Below are positions 6,294 to 64,000 of a DNA stretch of 64,000 nucleotides, piece by piece (position 1 is the stretch's first letter; every line of letters begins with the position of its first letter). The stretch comes from a virus (Duplodnaviria; Heunggongvirae; Uroviricota; Caudoviricetes), in IMG/VR virus record IMGVR_UViG_3300032018_000003, one strand, 5' to 3'. The notes under the pieces were generated by a model. That model did not search any database. It saw only the letters and a program-made list of their open reading frames with translations, and was not told where the DNA came from. The translations under genes were made by a program, and so were the position numbers.

Positions 6294-6645
6294 TGTATCA
6301 AATTTCCTTTATTATCATATTTACATTTACAATATTTTTTAAAAATTAAAAAATCTAATATTGGTAATTTATATTCCTTTGACATTATCACTACTCGGAT
6401 CGGTTTTATTATCCGTAACTGACATTCCGGGCATATCTTTGGTAGGCTCATGTAGTATTACCTTTTTTATTAAACATCCATTCTCATATTGTAATTCATA
6501 CAATATAGATTCTTTTGGTTCACTATTATGTGTAAACCATAAATTTTCCAACACATTCTCTTTTAAATCCATTTTTGCACCTCAATATTTTAAAATTGGT
6601 TATATATAAAGGATATACAATAACCTTTATATAGGTTTTGTTTCT

Positions 6646-8914: not shown

Positions 8915-9400
8915 TTAATCAGTCTCCGACAAAACCATTTTGCCTTTTAATCCTTTTACTTTTCCTTTACCATCGAACCGATAACCCCATACTTCGTTAT
9001 CTTCTCCGGTAAAAATCATATCTCCTTTGGTTACTTTATCTTTTAAATAATTTGCTAAATCTTCATCGTCATAGAATTTTTGTTCATAGTCTATAACTAA
9101 AGAATTATCTTCTTTTATTTCTAATGCTTCTATATGATAAAAAACATAATCTCCTGAAAGTTTAATTTTATCTCTCATTATTTTAAAGTTTTTGTGTTCT
9201 CCTTTCGGATTACTTTTAGTTATATTTGAACTACAACTTAAATATTCTGGAGAATTCTCCACACAACATAAAATATCTTTTAATAATTGTTCTTTGCATT
9301 CCTTTTTTACTTTCGTTGTAAATTCTACTCTTGAATAATATCCCATTTCAATCACCTCAACATTCCGCTTGAAAATTACAATATCCTGTTTTCTTGACAC
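8915..9400 (-). CDS. hypothetical protein (161 aa)
   Basis: ORF from track. Confidence 0.35.
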   Translation of the reverse strand: MSRKQDIVIFKRNVEVIEMGYYSRVEFTTKVKKECKEQLLKDILCCVENSPEYLSCSSNITKSNPKGEHKNFKIMRDKIKLSGDYVFYHIEALEIKEDNSLVIDYEQKFYDDEDLANYLKDKVTKGDMIFTGEDNEVWGYRFDGKGKVKGLKGKMVLSETD

Positions 9401-16496: not shown

Positions 16497-16529
16497 AAAA
16501 AAAAAAAAATAAAGGTTTAAACAACCTTT
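16497..16529 (-). terminator. hairpin followed by T13 tract (read on minus strand)
   Basis: Stem AAAGGTT/AACCTTT with a 5-nt loop, then 13 T on the minus strand. It sits at the 3' end of gene 16517..17041. Confidence 0.45.
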
Positions 16530-17041
16530 ATAATCTTTTCGATTTTAAAAGTAGTAGGAGTTTCCACTACTTTAAAGTCGTTATACCAATCGGCATCGTT
16601 TCCAATACTACCAACTTCAATATTTTTTTTACTTTCTAATCTATATACATAAACGTTTTTAACGTTATTAACAACGTTTAAAAGTGTTGGGGTATTCCCA
16701 TGTTTATTTGTTTTGTTTTTTAGTATTAAGTGTTTTAATATATCAACACTTAAATCAATTACGTCTTTATGTTCAATTTGTCCGAGTTCCCTAAATAAAC
16801 TACTAATAGTTACTCTATTAGAAGTCGCAATTTTAGATGTCCCATTTTTAATCGACTCGATTTGTTTTTGTAAATCGTCCATTTTTTGTTGTTGTAAAGT
16901 AGTTAACACTTCCGTTATTGGTTTTGTATTAACGTCTTTTAATACAATAGTTTCTTTTGTTTTGTTTTCCATTTTATTCAATCCTCCATATATTATATAT
17001 AACCTTTTGGTTAAATATAAGTTGTTTGTTTTGTTACACAA
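16517..17041 (-). CDS. hypothetical protein, paralog of 14565..14912 (174 aa)
   Basis: Shared 22-aa motif. A TATA-like element plus GGAGG SD lie upstream at 16985-17005. Confidence 0.4.
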   Translation of the reverse strand: MCNKTNNLYLTKRLYIIYGGLNKMENKTKETIVLKDVNTKPITEVLTTLQQQKMDDLQKQIESIKNGTSKIATSNRVTISSLFRELGQIEHKDVIDLSVDILKHLILKNKTNKHGNTPTLLNVVNNVKNVYVYRLESKKNIEVGSIGNDADWYNDFKVVETPTTFKIEKIIKVV

Positions 17042-17100
17042 TAACGTTTAAAACGTTTGTGTTGTGTTTTGTTTTTGTTTTGTTTTGTTTGTTTGGTATA
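17042..17100. repeat. GTTTT/GTTTG-rich tract
   Basis: gttttgtttttgttttgttttgtttgtttgg read directly. Confidence 0.7.
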
Positions 17101-17129
17101 ACACTTTGTTTTATTTGATTGTTTGTGTT

Positions 17130-17630
17130 ATACTAATACTACTATATACCTTTGAGTATATAAATGTTTGTGTTGTGTAACATATACCTTTTATAAAAGA
17201 ATCCCTATTAAATAGTATTACGTTATTGTTACTATATAATAGTATTATTTATTTGTTATTATATAGTAGTAGTTATTAAATTTACAGTAGGATCCTAATT
17301 ATGTTACTATTATATAATAACATTAAACCATAACTACTATAAAGTAATATAAGTCTTAATAGTATATCTCTTCTATATATCTATTATGTATAACAATATA
17401 GTTATACAATTAAGATTATCTTAATAGTATAACTTAATAGTATAACTATATTGTTATATGTAACTACTTAATAGTTTTGATATCTTATAACTACTATATA
17501 GTTTATATTATATGTAACTACTTTAAAGGGATCCTTATTTAATACTACTATATAGTTTAAACTTTTTATAACTACTACTCTCAAGTGTTTAAACACTACT
17601 ACTATAAAGTAACGTTTCAAAATTTCAAAA
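17130..17630. repeat. iteron family A, AACTACTATA(W)AGT and TTAATAGTATAACT copies
   Basis: At least 8 related copies, for example at 17332, 17421, 17434, 17490, 17545, 17568 and 17596. The region has no ORF. Confidence 0.6.
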
Positions 17631-17639
17631 TACCTGCAA

Positions 17640-17935
17640 GTGTAGTAATTTGAAAGTAGTGACACTTTTTTAAAACCTTTTAACTACTTTGAAATAAGTA
17701 TTTGAAGTCGTTATTTAAAAGTGGTAACACCCGAGACGTGCAGGGACGTACTTCTATTTGAAGTGATACGTACCCCCATTTGAAATGGTACGTGACGTAT
17801 AGGGGACGTACCTAGGACGTATATATATTTGAATTAGACGTACCTCGCCTGCATTTGAAAGGGGGTACGTACGTAGGCTAAAAGGGGGTACGTCCTATAT
17901 ATAGACGTAGTATATAAAGGGGGTACGTATCAAGT
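17640..17935 (+). repeat. iteron family B, ATTTGAA(R) plus GGGGGTACGT or GGGACGTAC composite repeats
   Basis: ATTTGAA occurs 7 times. A G-run plus TACGT occurs at 17743, 17769 (inverted), 17802, 17861, 17884 and 17918. This is a local GC-rich island. Confidence 0.65.
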
Positions 17936-18028
17936 GAATTTAGCCATATGTTATCGGTACGCTATAGACTAATATACAAAAAGGTATACCAAATTATCAA
18001 CTATAAAAATTAAAAAGGATTTTTTTTT

Positions 18029-18054
18029 ATTTATTTTCCATATAGAAAATAAAT
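18029..18054. repeat. perfect 10-bp inverted repeat atttattttc / gaaaataaat with 6-nt spacer
   Basis: Read directly. Confidence 0.7.
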
Positions 18055-18158
18055 TTATAAAGACCCCCAAAGATATCTATCCTCAAGGGTTATACTCATA
18101 TCCTTTATAAACTTCCTTTCTATATAGACAATAATTAAATAATACACAACAATACACG

Positions 18159-18296
18159 ATACCAAATATGGAAACGTGGCGATTCTATTAAGCCAGAAGG
18201 GTTATACTACTATTTGTTTATAAAGAACATACTAAAACACAATACCAAATATGGAAACGTGGCGATTCTATTAAGCTAGAAGGGTTATACTACTAT
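18159..18296. repeat. tandem direct repeat, 55-bp unit x2 (18159-18213 and 18242-18296), each preceded by a TTTATAAA TATA-like box
   Basis: The copies differ at 1 position. The period is 83 bp. Confidence 0.8.
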
Positions 18297-18334
18297 GTGT
18301 ATATGAATAGTATAGTGGTATAGACATTAGTATA

Positions 18335-18511
18335 TTAAAACTCGCCTCTATCCTTTCCTTTCCAATAGAGTATCGCACCAAGTCTTATTAATAGAAGTAA
18401 TATTATAATTGCAATTGGAATTATAATTAACCATATTTTAAATATATAGAATAGGAACACTAATATAACAACTGATACTAATCCTGCAAGCAATTGGTTT
18501 ACCCAAGTCAT
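18335..18511 (-). CDS. small two-TM membrane protein (58 aa, not in track)
   Basis: Manual translation MTWVNQLLAGLVSVVILVFLFYIFKIWLIIIPIAIIILLLLIRLGAILYWKGKDRGEF. Confidence 0.3.
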   Translation of the reverse strand: MTWVNQLLAGLVSVVILVFLFYIFKIWLIIIPIAIIILLLLIRLGAILYWKGKDRGEF

Positions 18512-32978: not shown

Positions 32979-35681
32979 CTAAAAATCTTCTTTAATTCCT
33001 ATCTGTACTCCAAATAAGGAGGATTCTTTTTTTGGTTCTTCTATTACTTTATTATTTTCTTTTTTTGGTTCTATAGCTTTAAATCTAACGTTTCTATAAT
33101 AATAATCTCGTTGTCTATCCACCATCGTATTTTTATAATCTACTCTTAATATATTTCTTAAATGGTAATTAAAGGTGTTTACTGTATCTATTTCTAAATC
33201 GTTTTCTCCACAAAATTGTGCGTATGCGTCTAATAACATATCTCTTTCAATACTACTTCCACTACAAAATTCAAGACGTCCAGAAATATATTTTTCCGAA
33301 CTACACCCATATATCTTAAATTTGTTTGTTATATCTTCTATAGAATCATTATAACTAAACCCGTTTTGATTTAATATTCTTTTTAATCCTTCTATTGCCC
33401 AATTTAATATTCCTGACATCTCATCTTTACTAAATAAAATGTCGTTTATTACATCGGGATTTCCTTTTTTAATAAGTTTTTTTTCGTCTTCGTTTACTTT
33501 TAATATCTCACTATCGTAATTTTTTTTATCATAAAATTTATATTTAAATTCTATTATCTTAAATCTTAAAAAAGAAGCCTTTGTTTTATCGTCTGGGTCT
33601 GGCATGGTGTTTAAAGATATAATATGCTTTGCAAATGGAGTAAAATCAAGAGATGATAAAAATTTTCTTTTTGCTGATTGCGTGTCTCCCCCCGTTAATT
33701 TTTTAATAGTATTCATATTAATTTTTTTATTTTTATCTACCTCAGAACTTATATTAATATATTTAGAATGTAATTCAGATAATTCAAAAGCATCACTTGC
33801 TAAATTAGATAATTCGAAATTTTTATAGTTTGTTTTACCAAACATTTTCTGAATTATTTTTAAAAATTTACCTTTTCCGTTTCTACCTGAACCAATAAGC
33901 ATAAGAAATTTATCAAATTTAGGAGTTCTGTGCAGACAATAACCAACAAACTCTTGTAAACTTATTTTGTCTTCTATGTTTTGTTTTATATCAATTCCGC
34001 GTTCATCTTTACTTGGCCCAATAACACTATCTAAAAATATTTGAAATTTGTTGTATTCTTTTTCTGAATTGTATGAAACATTTAATCTACTAAAAAATTT
34101 ATATTTTGGATTATAATTAATTAACTTATTTTGCTTTAAATCGTATAAACCGTTTCTTAATGGTATTAAATAACTCGGTTCGTCTGCAAACAATATTTTA
34201 GAATCTGTTTTTGTTGATTCTATATGTTCCATTATTTTATTAAATTTTAAATCTGTATAAGAATTAATTACTGTATTATCATCTAATATATCGTTTTCAA
34301 ACATATCGTAAACTATTTTTTTTAATGTATCTCTTCCATTATTAATATATATACCATTAGTATAAACATATACTTCTGAATGACTTTCGTTTTTTGTAAT
34401 ATAAATTTTATAATTATCTAATATATAATTAACTGCTAAATCCACCCCTTTAGATATTACTATAGGACTTTTACTTCTCATTAAAAAATGTATATCACGT
34501 AACACTTGTGTTCTTTCTTCTTCGTTTTTATGACTTAAATTTAATGGTATTGGTTTTAAATCATTGTGTAGTGCAATAGTTTCTTCAATGTATTCTTTTT
34601 TCATGTCGTCATCTAAAGACAAAAAATATTCTTTATCTTCTTCTTCTGTTATATGAGAATAAAACTCGTCAAATATATCGTTAATGTTTTTTTCTGCCCA
34701 TTTAATTTTTTTCCCAACACATTCTATTTTCCAATGGTCACATATCTCTTGCATTGCGGTTTTAAATGTTATTTCTTCTCCTGAATCTACTTTATGTTTT
34801 GCCTGCCACAACGAAAAAATATTATATCCTTTTGCTTCATGATAACAGTATGCAACCTCGTCATTTATATGAAGGTTTCCTTTTCCATGCATATCATGTA
34901 ATGGACATTTAACTACGGTGTTATTAGATACATCTGTCCCCATATATTCTAAAACATCTTTTATTTTTACTTTCTCACATACCGCCTGCATAAAAGGATT
35001 TAGTTTTTTTATTTTATTTTCTTCTTCTTTTATTTTATCTTCGGTGTTTAATTCAAATGTTTTTTCTAATTCGTTTAATGTTAAATTTGATATTTCACAG
35101 TCTTTAACAATTTCATATCTTCTTCCTGTACCTCTATTAATAGAATTTGGTCCAACAACTTGAGACCCCCTTCCTTGTAAATCTACAAGGGTTGTTCTTT
35201 TTCCATCAACTTCGATAGATACGGGTTTTTTCTTAAATTCTTTATCTAAAAAATAATAATAATGATATAACCCACTTCCACCGGTTTTTACTATAAGAGT
35301 GTCTTTTAAAATTTTTTCTTTTTCTTTTTGATATGTTTCCTCATCAAAATCTATAACTACAAGATTATTAACCCCACATAAAACTCCATAATTATTAACT
35401 TTTATATGATTTAATAGTTTATTATCATCATATCTATAATTAGTACAAAAATCTTTTAAAAATCTTATCTTTACTTTTTTGTTTTCTTTCTTTTCTGAAT
35501 CTAAAATTTCAATAATGTTTTGGTCTTCAAGACGTTGTAATGCAGTTTTATATCCTGTTGTTACTATATCCCCTGTTTTAAATCCGTTTTCTTTGGTATA
35601 AAATAATTCTATTGGTGTTTTTTCATTCAATAGAACGAATCTAAACATATCTTTTTGTAGAACTTTAGGTATTTGAATCAT
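32979..35681 (-). CDS. D5-like primase-helicase (900 aa)
   Basis: A C-terminal SF3-type P-loop LIGSGRNGKGKFL is present. There is also a Zn-binding CPLHDMHGKGNLHINDEVAYCYH segment and an N-terminal prim-pol-like VVIDFDEE. Confidence 0.7.
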   Translation of the reverse strand: MIQIPKVLQKDMFRFVLLNEKTPIELFYTKENGFKTGDIVTTGYKTALQRLEDQNIIEILDSEKKENKKVKIRFLKDFCTNYRYDDNKLLNHIKVNNYGVLCGVNNLVVIDFDEETYQKEKEKILKDTLIVKTGGSGLYHYYYFLDKEFKKKPVSIEVDGKRTTLVDLQGRGSQVVGPNSINRGTGRRYEIVKDCEISNLTLNELEKTFELNTEDKIKEEENKIKKLNPFMQAVCEKVKIKDVLEYMGTDVSNNTVVKCPLHDMHGKGNLHINDEVAYCYHEAKGYNIFSLWQAKHKVDSGEEITFKTAMQEICDHWKIECVGKKIKWAEKNINDIFDEFYSHITEEEDKEYFLSLDDDMKKEYIEETIALHNDLKPIPLNLSHKNEEERTQVLRDIHFLMRSKSPIVISKGVDLAVNYILDNYKIYITKNESHSEVYVYTNGIYINNGRDTLKKIVYDMFENDILDDNTVINSYTDLKFNKIMEHIESTKTDSKILFADEPSYLIPLRNGLYDLKQNKLINYNPKYKFFSRLNVSYNSEKEYNKFQIFLDSVIGPSKDERGIDIKQNIEDKISLQEFVGYCLHRTPKFDKFLMLIGSGRNGKGKFLKIIQKMFGKTNYKNFELSNLASDAFELSELHSKYINISSEVDKNKKINMNTIKKLTGGDTQSAKRKFLSSLDFTPFAKHIISLNTMPDPDDKTKASFLRFKIIEFKYKFYDKKNYDSEILKVNEDEKKLIKKGNPDVINDILFSKDEMSGILNWAIEGLKRILNQNGFSYNDSIEDITNKFKIYGCSSEKYISGRLEFCSGSSIERDMLLDAYAQFCGENDLEIDTVNTFNYHLRNILRVDYKNTMVDRQRDYYYRNVRFKAIEPKKENNKVIEEPKKESSLFGVQIGIKEDF

Positions 35682-35903: not shown

Positions 35904-35977
35904 AAAGATATTAATCTTTATTATTTAAATAACACTATACCATTTATATAATGTAACTTGTTTATATAGTTTGTGTT

Positions 35978-36536
35978 TCTAAAAAAACTTCTTTATAATA
36001 AAAATTTAGATATAATCTAATTACATAAGTTTTTTTAGAAAATATATATTACATAAGTTTTTTTTCTGTTTTTATAACTATTTATTATAATGTTAAGATT
36101 TTTTAAAAATAGTACTTTTTTGTAGTAACACAATAAATTAACATTTTTTTTGACATTATATATGTTTTCAAAAATATATATTGCGGTATATAATTCCCTA
36201 GGTTTTAGTGTTTTTTTGGTGTTTTTTACCCTTTTTTCTAAAAAAACTTATGTAACGAAAACAGATTTATGTAATGAGGGTATTGTAAAATGCTAGTATA
36301 ACCCATATATCATAGAAAAAAAAATATTACATACGTTACATACGACATTTCGAAAATTGGTATACAAAATATTTCTAAAAAAACTTTATAACCTATTTTT
36401 GTGTATTACCTAAATAGTAGTAAAAACATTAAGCGCGTTGTTAAAAATAATTTTTTTTATATACGAAATGGTATATACGAAAATTATAATATAAAATTCA
36501 TACTGAAGTTGAAAACGCTTATGTAACGTATGTAAT
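35978..36536. promoter_or_regulatory. strand-switch intergenic region with repeated TTACATAAG/CTTATGTAA and TCTAAAAAAACTT motifs
   Basis: TTACATAAG at 36021 and 36049. Its reverse complement at 36248, 36267 (variant) and 36518. TCTAAAAAAACTT at 35978, 36238 and 36374. Confidence 0.45.
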
Positions 36537-36595
36537 TTTCGAATAGTATATTAGAAAAGGTAATTATATAAATACCATTTACTATATTTAACATA

Positions 36596-36736
36596 ATGTT
36601 TAAAGAAATACATTTAGCAGCAATTGATGCTGCGCGTATCTTTGGTGAGGACTATCATCTAAGCTGGATATTTTTCTATCCACTTTGGTTTGTCGCGATC
36701 CTTGTCACGTTTAAAAAAGATAAAGGAGATGTTTAA
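36596..36736 (+). CDS. small membrane protein (46 aa, not in track)
   Basis: Manual translation MFKEIHLAAIDAARIFGEDYHLSWIFFYPLWFVAILVTFKKDKGDV. Confidence 0.3.
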   Translation: MFKEIHLAAIDAARIFGEDYHLSWIFFYPLWFVAILVTFKKDKGDV

Positions 36737-53746: not shown

Positions 53747-54877
53747 ATGGTGTTTAATGAAGATAATCTAGGTATTGCACGTAAACGTCTAGTAGAAAAA
53801 ATTATTCTTAGTAATTGGTTAGTTAAATCTCCTATAGACAGAACTTATACATACAACGAACTTCTTTTTGTTATTCAAGAGATGATGCAATCGGAAGGTA
53901 AAAATTATTTAGAACTTAATAGTGCTAATAGAGGATATGAAATATTTAGAAATTTTGTTGAATTACTTCTTTATAGAAATCTTGCTAATTATGATAGTAT
54001 GATATTACTCACTAGTCCTAAAGGAACTGGAAAATCATCAGCAGCAATTATGATTGCGAGATATTGGTGTAAATTATTAGGAAGAAATTTCGATCCAGAA
54101 AAAAACATAGCTTATAATAATAACGATGTATCAAATAAAATAGATGAGTTAGCTCCTTTTTCTGCACTTATTTGTGATGAGGCAGTACGGTTTGCTCTTT
54201 CGTCAGAATGGGCAAAAAAAGAACATCGTGAATTGAGAAAAAAACTTGCACAGGTAAGAACAAAACATTTTTTATTTATTTTATGTTTTCCATTAAAAGT
54301 ATATAAACTAGAAAGTACGTACCTCCAAAGCTATGTTAATTATTGGGTTGATCTTTATGCTAGAGGCCGAAGTGTAATATATATTAAAAACGCAAATCCT
54401 ACTCAAGATGGTTGGGCATTAAAAGAATTTGATAAAGTCGTTGGAAGTTATAATGAATTTACTTCAGAAGAACAAATAAAACAAAAGTTAATGAAACATC
54501 CGAATTATTGGCAAATGATGAAAATTCCAAAAGTACCTGAACACGTTTATGAAAAATATATGAAAACGCGAGAACGAAATGTATATGATAGTGAAGATGG
54601 TAATTTATTAGCTAGTACATCCAAAGAAGAAATATATCGTGCATTATTAATATTAGCATTAAAAGATATAATGACTAACGATACAACATTATCAATGAAT
54701 AGAATTATATTACACATAAAAAACCAGTACGATATAACTATAAATAAAAGTATAGTACAATTTATTCTTGAAGATAGTAAACAATTAATAAGTAAAGTAA
54801 GAGAACAAGTATTTGATGGTAACATTGATGAAAAATACCAGACAGAAAATAAACCAACTGGAAAAATAAATGAATGA
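53747..54877 (+). CDS. P-loop NTPase (possible packaging or replication ATPase) (376 aa)
   Basis: Walker A LTSPKGTGKSS and Walker B LICDEAVRF. Confidence 0.5.
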   Translation: MVFNEDNLGIARKRLVEKIILSNWLVKSPIDRTYTYNELLFVIQEMMQSEGKNYLELNSANRGYEIFRNFVELLLYRNLANYDSMILLTSPKGTGKSSAAIMIARYWCKLLGRNFDPEKNIAYNNNDVSNKIDELAPFSALICDEAVRFALSSEWAKKEHRELRKKLAQVRTKHFLFILCFPLKVYKLESTYLQSYVNYWVDLYARGRSVIYIKNANPTQDGWALKEFDKVVGSYNEFTSEEQIKQKLMKHPNYWQMMKIPKVPEHVYEKYMKTRERNVYDSEDGNLLASTSKEEIYRALLILALKDIMTNDTTLSMNRIILHIKNQYDITINKSIVQFILEDSKQLISKVREQVFDGNIDEKYQTENKPTGKINE

Positions 54878-61122: not shown

Positions 61123-61124
61123 AA

Positions 61125-64000
61125 ATGAAACTTAAATTTATTTTGTTTATTATTGTATGTTTATTAGTTTCTGGTGTCGCGAATGCTACTTGGTGGAATA
61201 CGTCGTATCAATATAAAATGTTAATCAATACTTCAAATTTCACAACATCAACTTTTTTTTATATAAATGGAAGTAATGGTGTTGATATAAAGGGTACTAT
61301 AATTTATCCTATTGCAAGAACTACAACAGGTAATGTTTCTTTATATTTCAATAATGCAACCGATTACTCTATTATTGAAAATGATACTATTGTTCAAAAT
61401 AATATTTATTCAAATGAAGTAATAGCATATTATAAAGCTGATGAAACTTCTTCATCTTCTAATTTAATAGATGCTATTGAACGTTATAATTTTACACAAG
61501 TTGGAAGTCCTTTATCAACTACAGGAAAAATATTAAATGGTAGAGTTGTTAATAATACAGGTGTACAATATTTTAATAGAGATAATGCTTTTTTAAGTCC
61601 TTTAAGTACTGCTGATTTTACTATTACTTTGTGGATTAAAAGATTACAAAGTGAGGAGAATACAATTATTTTTTCATCAGGACTTACAACAGGTAGTAAT
61701 AATCAAGGAGTTACTATATATTGGAAAGACGCAGATGCTAATAAAATTGCTTTCAGAGGTATTGGTTCAGATACAACAGGATATGTAGTTGCATCGACAT
61801 CTACTCTTGCACAAGATACTTGGTATATGGTAACAGTTAAAAAAAATTCAACACATATATCTCTTTTTATTAATGGTATATTTAATAATACTGCAACATA
61901 TACTCAAACAGGAAATTGGTGGAGTTCAACCAACGCAGCAGTAGGTTGTATATATTTAAGTGGTTCTCCTTCAGCATCAAATATTCCAAAAAATAATATT
62001 GATGATTTAGTTATTTATAATAAATCTTTATCTTCAGCTGAAATATTACAAAGGTATAATAATAATATAAATGTAAACGGTTTTGGTGATGTATATGCAA
62101 CAGAACAAGGTGGATCAGGGACTCCAATAGTTAATAGTATTAATATAACAACATATTATTCAGGTGGTGGTTATACAAGCGAATATATTTATGTACCATT
62201 CCAAAACATTACTTGTATCACAAACACAACTAGTGCTAATAGTATTAAATATAATTGGTTTGTAAATAGTATTAGTGTTTTAAATAATAGTATTGTATTA
62301 CCATTATCAGGAATTAATGTTGGGGACAATATTTATTGTCAAGTTAATGCGACAAATAGTACTTTCAATACATCAACACTCGCAAATTCACGTGTATATA
62401 CAGTTTTAGGTAGCGTGTTTCAATTTAGTAACACTGGTAATAATTGGAATTTAAATAATTTAACAGTATTTACTGGTAGTAAACACAATTTATCAATAAA
62501 CATAACCTTTGCACAATCTGATTTATTTGCTACATATTTAAACGTTACTTGTGATATTACTGGTACTATTTTTAGTGCGACAAATACTTCTATAAATACT
62601 AGTACTTTAAATTATTATATTAATAATATATCTTTAAATTATCCATTCCAACGTTGTAGAATTTTTATGACTAGTTCTGATTCGCACACTGCGCAATTAA
62701 TTCCTAATTATATTCAACAAAAAACAACAAAAGGAATTTTGTTTAATACTAGTATATCAAACATAGAAATAACGTCAAACGAAAACGATTATAATGATAT
62801 TAGTACACGAAAATTAATGGACAGAGTTACGTTTGAGTTTGATTATAATAGTAAATCATTGACACGAAGTTATACAGTACATTCGGATAATAAATTATAT
62901 TATTTACCTAATAGTAGATATAAAGGACATTTTGTAAGTTGGAACGAACAAACAAAAATAGGTAACTGGATAGATTTCGAGCAACAAAATAGTGATAATT
63001 ATAATTATGATATAAATAAAATAGATGATTATACTTATACTGTTATTGTATCACCAATAATATTAATACCGGATGAAGAAATTGTATTAGAACAAAAAGG
63101 AATCTTAAAATTTTTAGGTATTGGTGAATTGGAAACTATTGAAGAAGCGAAAATAAATGATTATGGTATTGATAATATAAAATTCGAAACTCTTGGTAAT
63201 ACTAATGTATATAATTTAACTGCATTTTTTTATATTGGTGGGCAAATTAATTTGAGTTCATTTAATAAATATGATAATAGTAATATTACTAATTATAGTG
63301 TAGTAGTATCGACATCAAGTGGATTTCCACCAATTTCACAAACTTTTAATATAGTCAACAAAAGTGGATTAGGATTTATTGAGAATGTTACTAATGGTAC
63401 ATATATATTTAATTTTACTACACCATACTTTTTTGATTCTATACAAACTGTTATTATGAACAACGTATCAAAGAGTGTATTATACAATACTTCACAATCG
63501 TTATTATCGATTTATGTGACTGATTTACTTATCGGCCAACCAGTAACGAATTATTCAGTTTATTTATATGACGGAACTTTTTTAACACAACGAAACGTTA
63601 CAACAATAAATGGTTATATTTCAATACCACTTAACGCAACAACATATTTATATAATGTAACTGGACCAGGGTATTTGATTGCTGGTGGTACAACCGCGCC
63701 TACATATAAAGAAAATTTAACATTAACTGTTGGATTGGGGTATTTAGCAAATTTTACTATTTGGGACGAAGTTACTGGTGGATTGTTTAATATGGGTGAT
63801 GCGACATTACCAACATTAATGATATATTGTCCAACAAGCAATATAATATATAATTTATCAGTAAATAAATTTACTGTACCAGTAAGTTGTGTATATAGTA
63901 AATTCCAAATTCAAATGTATTTTAATGATACTGGTACTACACCAATATATAGAACTTATATTATTGCACCAACTGCATTGAAAGGAATAAACGCTTATTT
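61125..64000 (+). CDS. secreted LamG/concanavalin-A-like domain protein, 3' truncated by window edge (>958 aa)
   Basis: Signal peptide MKLKFILFIIVCLLVSGVANA. LamG signature TITLWIK...DTWYMVTVKKNSTHISLFINGI...IDDLVIYNKSLSSAEI. Dense N-x-S/T sequons. No in-frame stop was seen up to position 64000. Confidence 0.55.
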   Translation, partial: MKLKFILFIIVCLLVSGVANATWWNTSYQYKMLINTSNFTTSTFFYINGSNGVDIKGTIIYPIARTTTGNVSLYFNNATDYSIIENDTIVQNNIYSNEVIAYYKADETSSSSNLIDAIERYNFTQVGSPLSTTGKILNGRVVNNTGVQYFNRDNAFLSPLSTADFTITLWIKRLQSEENTIIFSSGLTTGSNNQGVTIYWKDADANKIAFRGIGSDTTGYVVASTSTLAQDTWYMVTVKKNSTHISLFINGIFNNTATYTQTGNWWSSTNAAVGCIYLSGSPSASNIPKNNIDDLVIYNKSLSSAEILQRYNNNINVNGFGDVYATEQGGSGTPIVNSINITTYYSGGGYTSEYIYVPFQNITCITNTTSANSIKYNWFVNSISVLNNSIVLPLSGINVGDNIYCQVNATNSTFNTSTLANSRVYTVLGSVFQFSNTGNNWNLNNLTVFTGSKHNLSINITFAQSDLFATYLNVTCDITGTIFSATNTSINTSTLNYYINNISLNYPFQRCRIFMTSSDSHTAQLIPNYIQQKTTKGILFNTSISNIEITSNENDYNDISTRKLMDRVTFEFDYNSKSLTRSYTVHSDNKLYYLPNSRYKGHFVSWNEQTKIGNWIDFEQQNSDNYNYDINKIDDYTYTVIVSPIILIPDEEIVLEQKGILKFLGIGELETIEEAKINDYGIDNIKFETLGNTNVYNLTAFFYIGGQINLSSFNKYDNSNITNYSVVVSTSSGFPPISQTFNIVNKSGLGFIENVTNGTYIFNFTTPYFFDSIQTVIMNNVSKSVLYNTSQSLLSIYVTDLLIGQPVTNYSVYLYDGTFLTQRNVTTINGYISIPLNATTYLYNVTGPGYLIAGGTTAPTYKENLTLTVGLGYLANFTIWDEVTGGLFNMGDATLPTLMIYCPTSNIIYNLSVNKFTVPVSCVYSKFQIQMYFNDTGTTPIYRTYIIAPTALKGINAY

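Follow-up and report, generated by a model that had tools for sequence, protein, structure and literature searches.

A conserved hub of two palindromic motifs in a gene-free gap of a putative archaeal virus: a probable protein-binding array and possible replication origin

What is a short, G+C-rich patch of repeated motifs doing in an AT-rich viral genome? The question is raised by positions 17640-17935 of a 64,000-nucleotide stretch (hereafter the window) of the IMG/VR virus record IMGVR_UViG_3300032018_000003, assigned to the Caudoviricetes. The window has 27% G+C, and its genes change strand at about 36 kb, all of those before this point being on the minus strand and those after it on the plus strand. 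An earlier note, made from the letters of the DNA alone, had described the patch as an ordered array of protein-binding sites. We find that the array is a dense, non-random set of two short palindromic motifs and that it is most likely a protein-binding hub. Which process the hub serves is less clear; a replication origin is the reading that we favour, tentatively.

Anatomy of the array

The array is housed in a 1.3-kb gap (17042-18334) in which no open reading frame (ORF) is credible as a gene and a public gene caller places none. The gap is flanked by the gene of a 58-amino-acid (aa) membrane protein (18335-18511, minus strand) and that of a 151-aa protein (16517-16972, minus strand). Within 17640-17935 there are 13 ACGT cores, four exact copies of the decamer GGGGGTACGT, and six copies of ATTTGAA together with one CTTTGAA (17687). 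The decamers start at 17861, 17884 and 17919 on the plus strand and occupy 17768-17777 on the minus strand, which reproduces the three direct copies and one inverted copy of the earlier note; the other motifs that it listed are there as well, including GGGACGTAC, present twice. Elsewhere in the 64 kb the decamer has no copy, with an expectation of 0.48 even when one mismatch is allowed. Shorter words are also concentrated here: 7 of the 15 matches to GACGTA in the window lie inside 17745-17909, 16 of the 90 to TACGT inside 17746-17929, and 6 of the 36 to ATTTGAA inside 17648-17859, every one of these six on the plus strand.

Could such counts arise by chance or from local composition? We shuffled 17640-17935 itself 2000 times with its dinucleotide content preserved, and no shuffle reached the observed number of ACGT (13, against a mean of 3.6), TACGT (16 against 3.3), GGGGGTACGT (4 against 0.0) or ATTTGAA (6 against 0.02). 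Chance and composition are thus ruled out as the cause of the motif counts, which lie far above the frequencies under shuffling that the note had named as refuting its claim. A restriction-related cause of the ACGT cluster was rejected too: outside 17600-18000, ACGT and GTAC occur at 0.91 and 1.03 of expectation and so are not avoided, whereas GATC, CATG and CTAG are. The full set of palindromes depleted there (GATC 0.41, CATG 0.49, GGCC 0.52, TCGA 0.59 and CTAG 0.64 of expectation) looks like restriction avoidance. The G+C island itself is real, with 44.9% in 17720-17935 against 20.7% directly to its left (17042-17639) and 27.6% in 17936-18334. From this rise the note had gone on to conclude that the motif is under selection; conservation in relatives, described below, is a better argument for this than composition.

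One of the two motifs is a 9-bp palindrome, ATTT(C/G)AAAT, of which seven copies (the boxes) lie between 17648 and 17861, with G as the centre base on the plus strand in all seven. They start at 17648 (ATTTGAAAG), 17687 (CTTTGAAAT), 17700 and 17756 (both ATTTGAAGT), 17778 (ATTTGAAAT), 17827 (ATTTGAATT) and 17853 (ATTTGAAAG again). The other motif had been described as ACGTAC preceded by G-runs. A better description is GG(T)ACGT(A)CC, a degenerate palindrome to which G or C runs are often added, and the 13 cores fall into about eleven such sites between 17733 and 17932. These lie at 17733 (GAGACGTGC), 17743 (GGGACGTACT), 17764 (TGATACGTACCCCC), 17787 (GGTACGTGACGTA), 17802 (GGGGACGTACCT), 17814 (AGGACGTATA), 17835 (TAGACGTACCT), 17858 (AAAGGGGGTACGTACGTAG), 17881 (AAAGGGGGTACGTCCT), 17902 (TAGACGTAGT) and 17916 (AAAGGGGGTACGTATCA).

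How regular is the arrangement? The boxes are 39, 13, 56, 22, 49 and 26 bp apart, and not at the regular 23-26 bp that had been claimed. Regularity is found elsewhere. Successive ACGT cores are separated by 10, 22, 22, 5, 11, 11, 21, 29, 4, 19, 15 and 20 bp, so that six of the twelve spacings (10, 22, 22, 11, 11 and 21 bp) are near one or two helical turns. In addition, four composite units, ATTTGAA-N4-6-(T)ACGTAC, join a box to an ACGT site at a distance of 10-13 bp; they start at 17756, 17778, 17827 and 17853 on the plus strand (17756-17872 overall) and are the sole matches to this pattern in the window. The units are 17-20 bp long and irregularly spaced (22, 49 and 26 bp). Just four of the seven boxes are paired with an ACGT site. 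Three of the boxes lack a G or C run; at the others such a run lies 0-6 bp away, on one side or the other and in varying orientation. The uniqueness of the decamer and of the composite units in 64 kb fits a single-copy cis site and not a general promoter word.

The inverted decamer, from which a dyad element had been suggested, proves to belong to something larger: a perfect 14-bp inverted repeat with arms TGATACGTACCCCC (17764-17777) and GGGGGTACGTATCA (17919-17932). Between the arms lie 141 bp with three of the boxes and the majority of ACGT sites, and in a DNA fold the arms form the outer stem. We rejected a miniature inverted-repeat transposable element as the source of this repeat, which has no target duplication and no second copy.

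On the side of the downstream small gene the array gives way to an AT-rich stretch (17177-17576, 18% G+C) with TACTATATAG-type repeats. In a nearest-neighbour stability scan of all 64 kb this stretch is the least stable 400 bp of the window, and it contains the least stable 200 bp (17313-17512). These minima lie about 150 bp from the array, which is itself among the five most stable stretches. The 400-bp stretch is therefore a candidate unwinding element. Inside it lies an imperfect AT-rich palindrome of about 70 nt (17389-17459), whose DNA fold has a z of -4.9 and is matched by none of 200 shuffles. Beyond it, ACACAACACAAACATTTATATACTC (17154-17178, minus strand) is a candidate BRE/TATA promoter of the small gene.

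On the opposite side, a run of nine T is followed by a hairpin, TTTATTTTC-catata-GAAAATAAA (18020-18053), which probably insulates the array from the upstream operon. Between hairpin and operon sit two tandem 83-nt repeats that are 87% identical (18135-18300), with a partial third copy at 18074-18101; they have no Rfam match and no significant fold, and one public contig of the same element breaks within them. Bacterial sigma-70 promoters and terminators were not found above the level of shuffles.

Conservation of the hub in related elements

Is the hub peculiar to this element, or is it shared by others? With the DUF932 protein encoded 3 kb away as the anchor, IMG/VR and metagenomes yielded about 100 related loci. 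The DUF932 proteins of the relatives are 40-75% identical (40-55% for most of those compared), and, as we read the sample identifiers, they come from anoxic sediments and saline lakes. The gene order is conserved as DUF932 ... tm154-g113-g53, the gap, and a small Lys-rich winged-helix-like gene, and the gap measures 1.3-1.5 kb in most relatives. In all 14 elements with a complete gap, TTTGAA/TTCAAA occurs at 3-11 per kb within it against 0.9-2.3 per kb outside, and all 14 gaps are enriched for the palindrome ATTT(C/G)AAAT. The clusters hold 5-12 boxes. Across 178 sites from 16 related elements the box consensus is A(81%)TTTGAA A(64%)T(65%), written ATTTGAAAT for short, and the boxes favour neither orientation.

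About half of the elements also carry G-run/ACGT/C-run palindromes, such as GGGGGTACGTACCCCC, inside or beside the cluster. Examples are aaaataGGGGGTACGTACCCCCtatttt in L045, the same core in L060, GGGGGTACGTCAC in L047, GGGTACGTCCCCCC in L022, GGACGTACCCC and ACCCTACGTAC in L134, three sites in L115 and a half-site, GGGGGTACGTAC, in L074. Absence of the motifs from homologous regions would have counted against the earlier note; both classes are found again in the corresponding non-coding gap of the relatives. The window differs from them in that its ACGT site has been amplified to about a dozen copies. Taken together, the motif counts, their uniqueness in the window, the phasing at about one or two turns, the conservation and the dyad support the proposal of an ordered array of binding sites, as an indirect argument.

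The relatives share a layout as well as motifs. In the direction of transcription it runs from the end of the upstream operon through a variable stretch to a conserved hairpin (aGAAAATAcctATTTTCtttt), then the box cluster with its palindrome or palindromes, AT-rich lineage-specific repeats, and GTAACA-type inverted repeats with a AAACATTTATAWA box, after which the small gene follows. The AAACATTTATAWA box, conserved in relatives, is part of the candidate promoter at 17154-17178 in the window, and GTAACA at 17177 and TGTTAC at 17227 are weak counterparts of the inverted repeats. The hairpin is terminator-like and stands ahead of the cluster in nine aligned relatives; in the window its counterpart is the differently formed hairpin at 18020-18053. 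In the nine relatives it is conserved at the nucleotide level (aGAAAATAcctATTTTCTTTTGAGAA) directly upstream of the box clusters (L053 5568, L040 6329, L046 12617, L045 5594, L074 7678, L079 5842, L042 9685, L060 7445 and L115 9366), and a conserved island, CCATAAnnAGTTTCATAA..TGAT, comes before it. The hairpin may act as a terminator, mark the 3' end of a small RNA or be another binding site.

The small gene that always follows the gap encodes, in the window, the 151-aa protein with a Lys-rich tail. On a structural model this protein is a candidate for a winged-helix DNA binder that acts at the hub; confidence in the model is moderate, since homologue searches gave only one to three sequences, and its fold matches include TubR and ScpB. 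Among relatives the boxes stay the same but identity of the protein drops to 22-25%, and no co-variation between the protein and the presence of the ACGT motif is visible. In relatives, inverted repeats of the form TGTTACCC / GGGTAACA flank the gene, at its promoter and on its 3' side (L047 7230-7270; L044; L046 13140-13175; L045 5120-5240; L115 8570-8700 and 10320-10375; L022 15390-15410; and L025, as GGAGTAACA). These GTAACA repeats are likely the operator of the winged-helix protein, and likelier targets for it than the boxes.

Two relatives stand out in other respects. In L091 a tRNA-Gly(TCC) gene (9263-9334) lies in the syntenic gap and the small winged-helix gene is present in two copies. 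In L115 the same gene order and hub are found on a 183-kb ENA scaffold, so that members of the family may reach about twice the size of this element. Scans of IMG/VR with paired decamers, a 16-bp palindrome or three boxes returned almost only unrelated contigs and one further member, L134, and literature searches for the box sequence returned noise only.

A possible replication origin and its rivals

What kind of element carries this hub? Identical sequence is found in two public assemblies, in the same orientation where they overlap, and, to judge by a contig of 97 kb, the genome may measure about 97 kb, of which about 33 kb lie outside the window. The element encodes a 900-aa primase-helicase (32979-35681, minus strand) with Prim-Pol, D5_N and P4-family primase/SF3 helicase domains (TIGR01613, 145 bits against a cut-off of 108.7), which is a candidate for the trans-acting initiator of the hub. 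It also encodes a protein like the small subunit of RFC, whose best solved relatives are archaeal (1iqp at 2e-42, against 5e-30 for T4 gp44), and a PCNA/Rad1-like protein whose Pfam match is borderline. One further protein has a weak, sub-threshold match to PolB (20.5 bits against a cut-off of 23) as well as matches in the PDB. A C5 DNA methyltransferase and two SF2 helicases are encoded as well, and most remaining ORFs of the window are orphans. One of these, of 376 aa (53747-54877, plus strand), has a weak match (E = 2e-7) to a PHROG labelled 'DnaA-like replication initiation protein', a label that finds no support in Pfam, NCBIfam or the PDB; it could be a divergent AAA+ initiator. Another ORF (61123-64000, plus strand) exceeds 958 aa, runs past the end of the window and is rich in N-x-S/T; its only match is one PHROG of unknown function, and a fibre or adhesin is a possible identity.

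A strong promoter word, TAGAAAC-N6-TATATAAAYA, emerged when upstream regions were aligned, with 12 copies by weight matrix, all in gene sense: at 6620, 21842, 25846, 31293 and 35955 on the minus strand, and at 36549, 38189, 42313, 45539, 50215, 56759 and 60441 on the plus strand. In several copies the TATA box lies 24-28 nt ahead of the ATG, which implies leaderless transcripts, and internal genes have Shine-Dalgarno sequences. It is the archaeal pattern to combine TATA-box promoters and leaderless first cistrons with internal cistrons led by Shine-Dalgarno sequences. For this reason we take the host to be an archaeon, to which the archaeal-type RFC also points. Neither DNA nor protein searches found a close cultured relative, and a host search in GTDB genomes gave a single distant match, on a contig of a Methanosarcinales metagenome-assembled genome.

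With these components in hand, we tentatively read the hub of this uncultivated viral or plasmid-like archaeal element as a replication origin, in which an initiator-binding array and an unwinding region would be served by a primase-helicase of the P4-alpha/pRN1 type. The hub is origin-like because it is unique, gene-free and apparently terminator-insulated, because its phased palindromic sites adjoin the most meltable DNA and are conserved in position, and because the family carries its own primase-helicase, clamp, clamp loader and polymerase-like protein. Under this model, dimeric DNA-binding proteins would sit along one face of the helix, on the phased G-run/ACGT palindromes and on the ATTT(C/G)AAAT boxes, and so build a nucleoprotein complex. 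The complex would strain and open the adjoining 400-bp stretch of 18% G+C with its 70-nt AT palindrome. The P4-alpha/pRN1-ORF904-type primase-helicase would then enter the opened stretch and prime, and the family-B polymerase, PCNA-like clamp and RFC-like loader of the element would elongate. Binding at the sites, the identity of the binders and a start of replication at this place are all things that we infer. The short iterons that the alpha primase-helicase of phage P4 recognises, in ori and crr, lie kilobases from its own gene; given this precedent, the 15 kb between the array and the primase gene are no objection.

Several observations weigh against an origin at this site. The ACGT motif is absent from about half of the relatives. 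G/C and A/T skews at third codon positions are unchanged across 17.7 kb, and the switch of strand and skew in the window comes at about 36 kb. There, a second AT-rich gap (35904-36700) adjoins the primase-helicase gene and contains the second least stable DNA, which makes it a rival location for the origin. This divergent gap has about five AAGTTTTTTTAGAAA-type repeats along with TTACATACGTTACATACG repeats; some of its repeats are copies of the promoter word, and the gap is in part a promoter cluster. Among the flanking ORFs scanned, no protein of the Rep, Orc1/Cdc6 or DnaA families is encoded beside the array. Finally, relatives have a second, smaller group of boxes upstream of the next promoter, an arrangement that fits transcription control equally well.

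Could the hub, then, be a transcription control region? In such a switch a viral or host regulator would use the palindromes and boxes as operators or as upstream activating sites, in the manner of the SSV1 F55 tandem operator repeats or the upstream sites of Lrp/Ptr2-type archaeal activators. Its targets would be the promoter of the winged-helix gene, a promoter at TATATAAA (17911) or, in relatives, the neighbouring integrase. The TATATAAA / TTTATATA box (17911-17918) is bracketed by ACGT sites and could be a promoter in either direction; further TATA-like runs lie at 17820 and 17896. However, neither this box nor anything else in 17042-18334 matches the main promoter model of the element, and downstream of 17911 on the plus strand nothing is coding or structured. 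Two genuine promoters of the element have AAACGTAAC directly upstream of the TATA box, yet the motifs of the array are not at the other 12 promoters. In L025 and L134 the cluster abuts the 5' end of an integrase gene, and the second box group of the relatives and the resemblance of the adjacent conserved protein, as modelled, to a winged-helix DNA binder would suit a switch too. Set against this, the putative promoter of the winged-helix gene in the window lies 480-780 bp downstream of the array, and some 18 sites in 300 bp are far above what is typical of archaeal operators. We consider a switch possible but doubtful.

The remaining readings are weaker than the origin and the switch. A centromere-like partition site would be a set of phased repeats bound by a small protein, here the TubR- or ParR-like winged-helix protein, that segregates an episome. 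The sites are numerous and form a unique cluster upstream of a gene for a small, putatively DNA-binding protein; short, phased repeats of mixed orientation in such a place recall the parC, tubC and omega-heptad centromeres, and TubR and ScpB are among the fold matches of the protein. Unlike in those systems, none of about 60 scanned ORFs matches the ParA, ParM, TubZ or SegA-type NTPase families; what follows the winged-helix gene is unrelated (in L115, a UvrD helicase), and the winged-helix protein falls to 22-25% identity with the boxes staying constant. We think partition unlikely.

Nor is a recombination or packaging site probable, be it a segment of attP type or an invertible one between the arms of the 14-bp repeat, or a pac or terminal region for terminase. 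That the perfect repeat encloses 141 bp would suit this proposal, as would the 22-nt inverted repeats of L047, which include GTACCCC/GGGGTAC and flank about 220 bp, the integrase genes beside the hub in five relatives, and the several public contigs that end in or near it. Yet no integrase or invertase is found at the window locus or among the ORFs scanned, the hub is kept in relatives without an integrase, the two independent assemblies agree in orientation and are identical over their overlap, assembly alone is expected to end contigs near repeats, and inversion does not need the many internal sites.

That the island is a structured non-coding RNA gene is very improbable: G+C-rich islands of AT-rich genomes are often RNA genes, 17720-17940 folds better than shuffles as DNA or RNA (z = -4.7) and one relative has a tRNA-Gly in the syntenic gap, but there are no Rfam matches, the repeated palindromic motif accounts for the fold, the flanks fold no better than shuffles, and an alignment of nine relatives supports the terminal hairpin only, without covariation.

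Comparison with known systems

Does the hub resemble anything already described? The decamer itself recurs in an unrelated setting. The 21-bp enhancer repeats of chicken anaemia virus, a gyrovirus, contain GGGGGTACGT in tandem copies (L007), and 21-22 bp repeats of this kind with the decamer were seen in the 2.3-kb gyrovirus contigs L007, L009, L011, L003 and L018 of IMG/VR. These come from a eukaryotic single-stranded DNA virus with 53% G+C and no boxes; we rejected homology and regard the match as a coincidence of sequence.

Given the archaeal host that we propose, a more natural comparison is with the origin recognition boxes (ORBs) and mini-ORBs bound by Orc1/Cdc6, which combine a dyad element with a G-string, as in ORB1 of P. 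furiosus (PMC1904270). The array likewise has a site in which an AT-rich dyad ending in GAAAT is joined to a run of five G (ATTTGAAAGGGGG), and it has many copies beside an AT-rich region. Unlike the ORB sequences given in PMC1904270, the box consensus ATTTGAAAT does not contain the invariant TTCC; the G-run keeps no fixed distance or orientation relative to the dyad, and the seven boxes share one orientation on one side of 17177-17576 instead of being inverted around AT-rich DNA. No orc1/cdc6 gene was found among the ORFs scanned in the window, with about 33 kb of the genome lying outside it. By these features the array appears not to be an ORB/Orc1 origin. A looser relationship would be mimicry, in which the ATTT(C/G)AAAT boxes and G5 runs stand in as AT-rich imitations of the host's ORB-plus-G-string, and the virus recruits the host initiator and helicase. 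If a host factor read the boxes, this would account for their constancy while the proteins of the family diverged to 40-50% identity, and the idea leans on the lack of Orc1/Cdc6 and MCM genes in the window. We judge it improbable.

The iteron origins of theta plasmids and phage lambda have repeats of 17-22 bp at a spacing of about two turns, next to an AT-rich unwinding region. The array is similar in its composite units of 17-20 bp and its ACGT cores 21-22 bp apart; the least stable AT-rich DNA of the window is adjacent, as in iteron origins, and a small winged-helix-like gene is near. It differs in that the units are 22, 49 and 26 bp apart and are not uniformly direct repeats, that the flanking ORFs have no match to a Rep family, and that the predicted winged-helix protein is a single small domain. 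The word 'iteron' of the earlier note, taken as a name for origin repeats, is a best guess.

For archaeal viruses, and above all for uncultivated lineages of anoxic sediments and saline lakes, hardly any replication origin or master control region has been charted. In this hub there is now a concrete target, about 1 kb long and conserved across the family, with two defined motifs, one unwinding candidate and named candidate binders, namely the primase-helicase, the small winged-helix protein and host initiators. If the hub is an origin, it could also provide a basis for shuttle vectors and for linking these elements to hosts through shared origin motifs.

The origin reading finds its nearest counterpart in ori and crr of phage P4 and in ORF904 of pRN1. 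The element, like these, has a P4-family primase-helicase with an N-terminal Prim-Pol domain, and like P4 it has a candidate origin made of short repeats in both orientations, kilobases from the primase-helicase gene. It departs from P4 in its motifs, which are unrelated to the P4 type I octamer and fall into two interleaved classes, and in its presumed archaeal host. In sum, this is an element of a known kind in a poorly known group of archaeal mobile elements.

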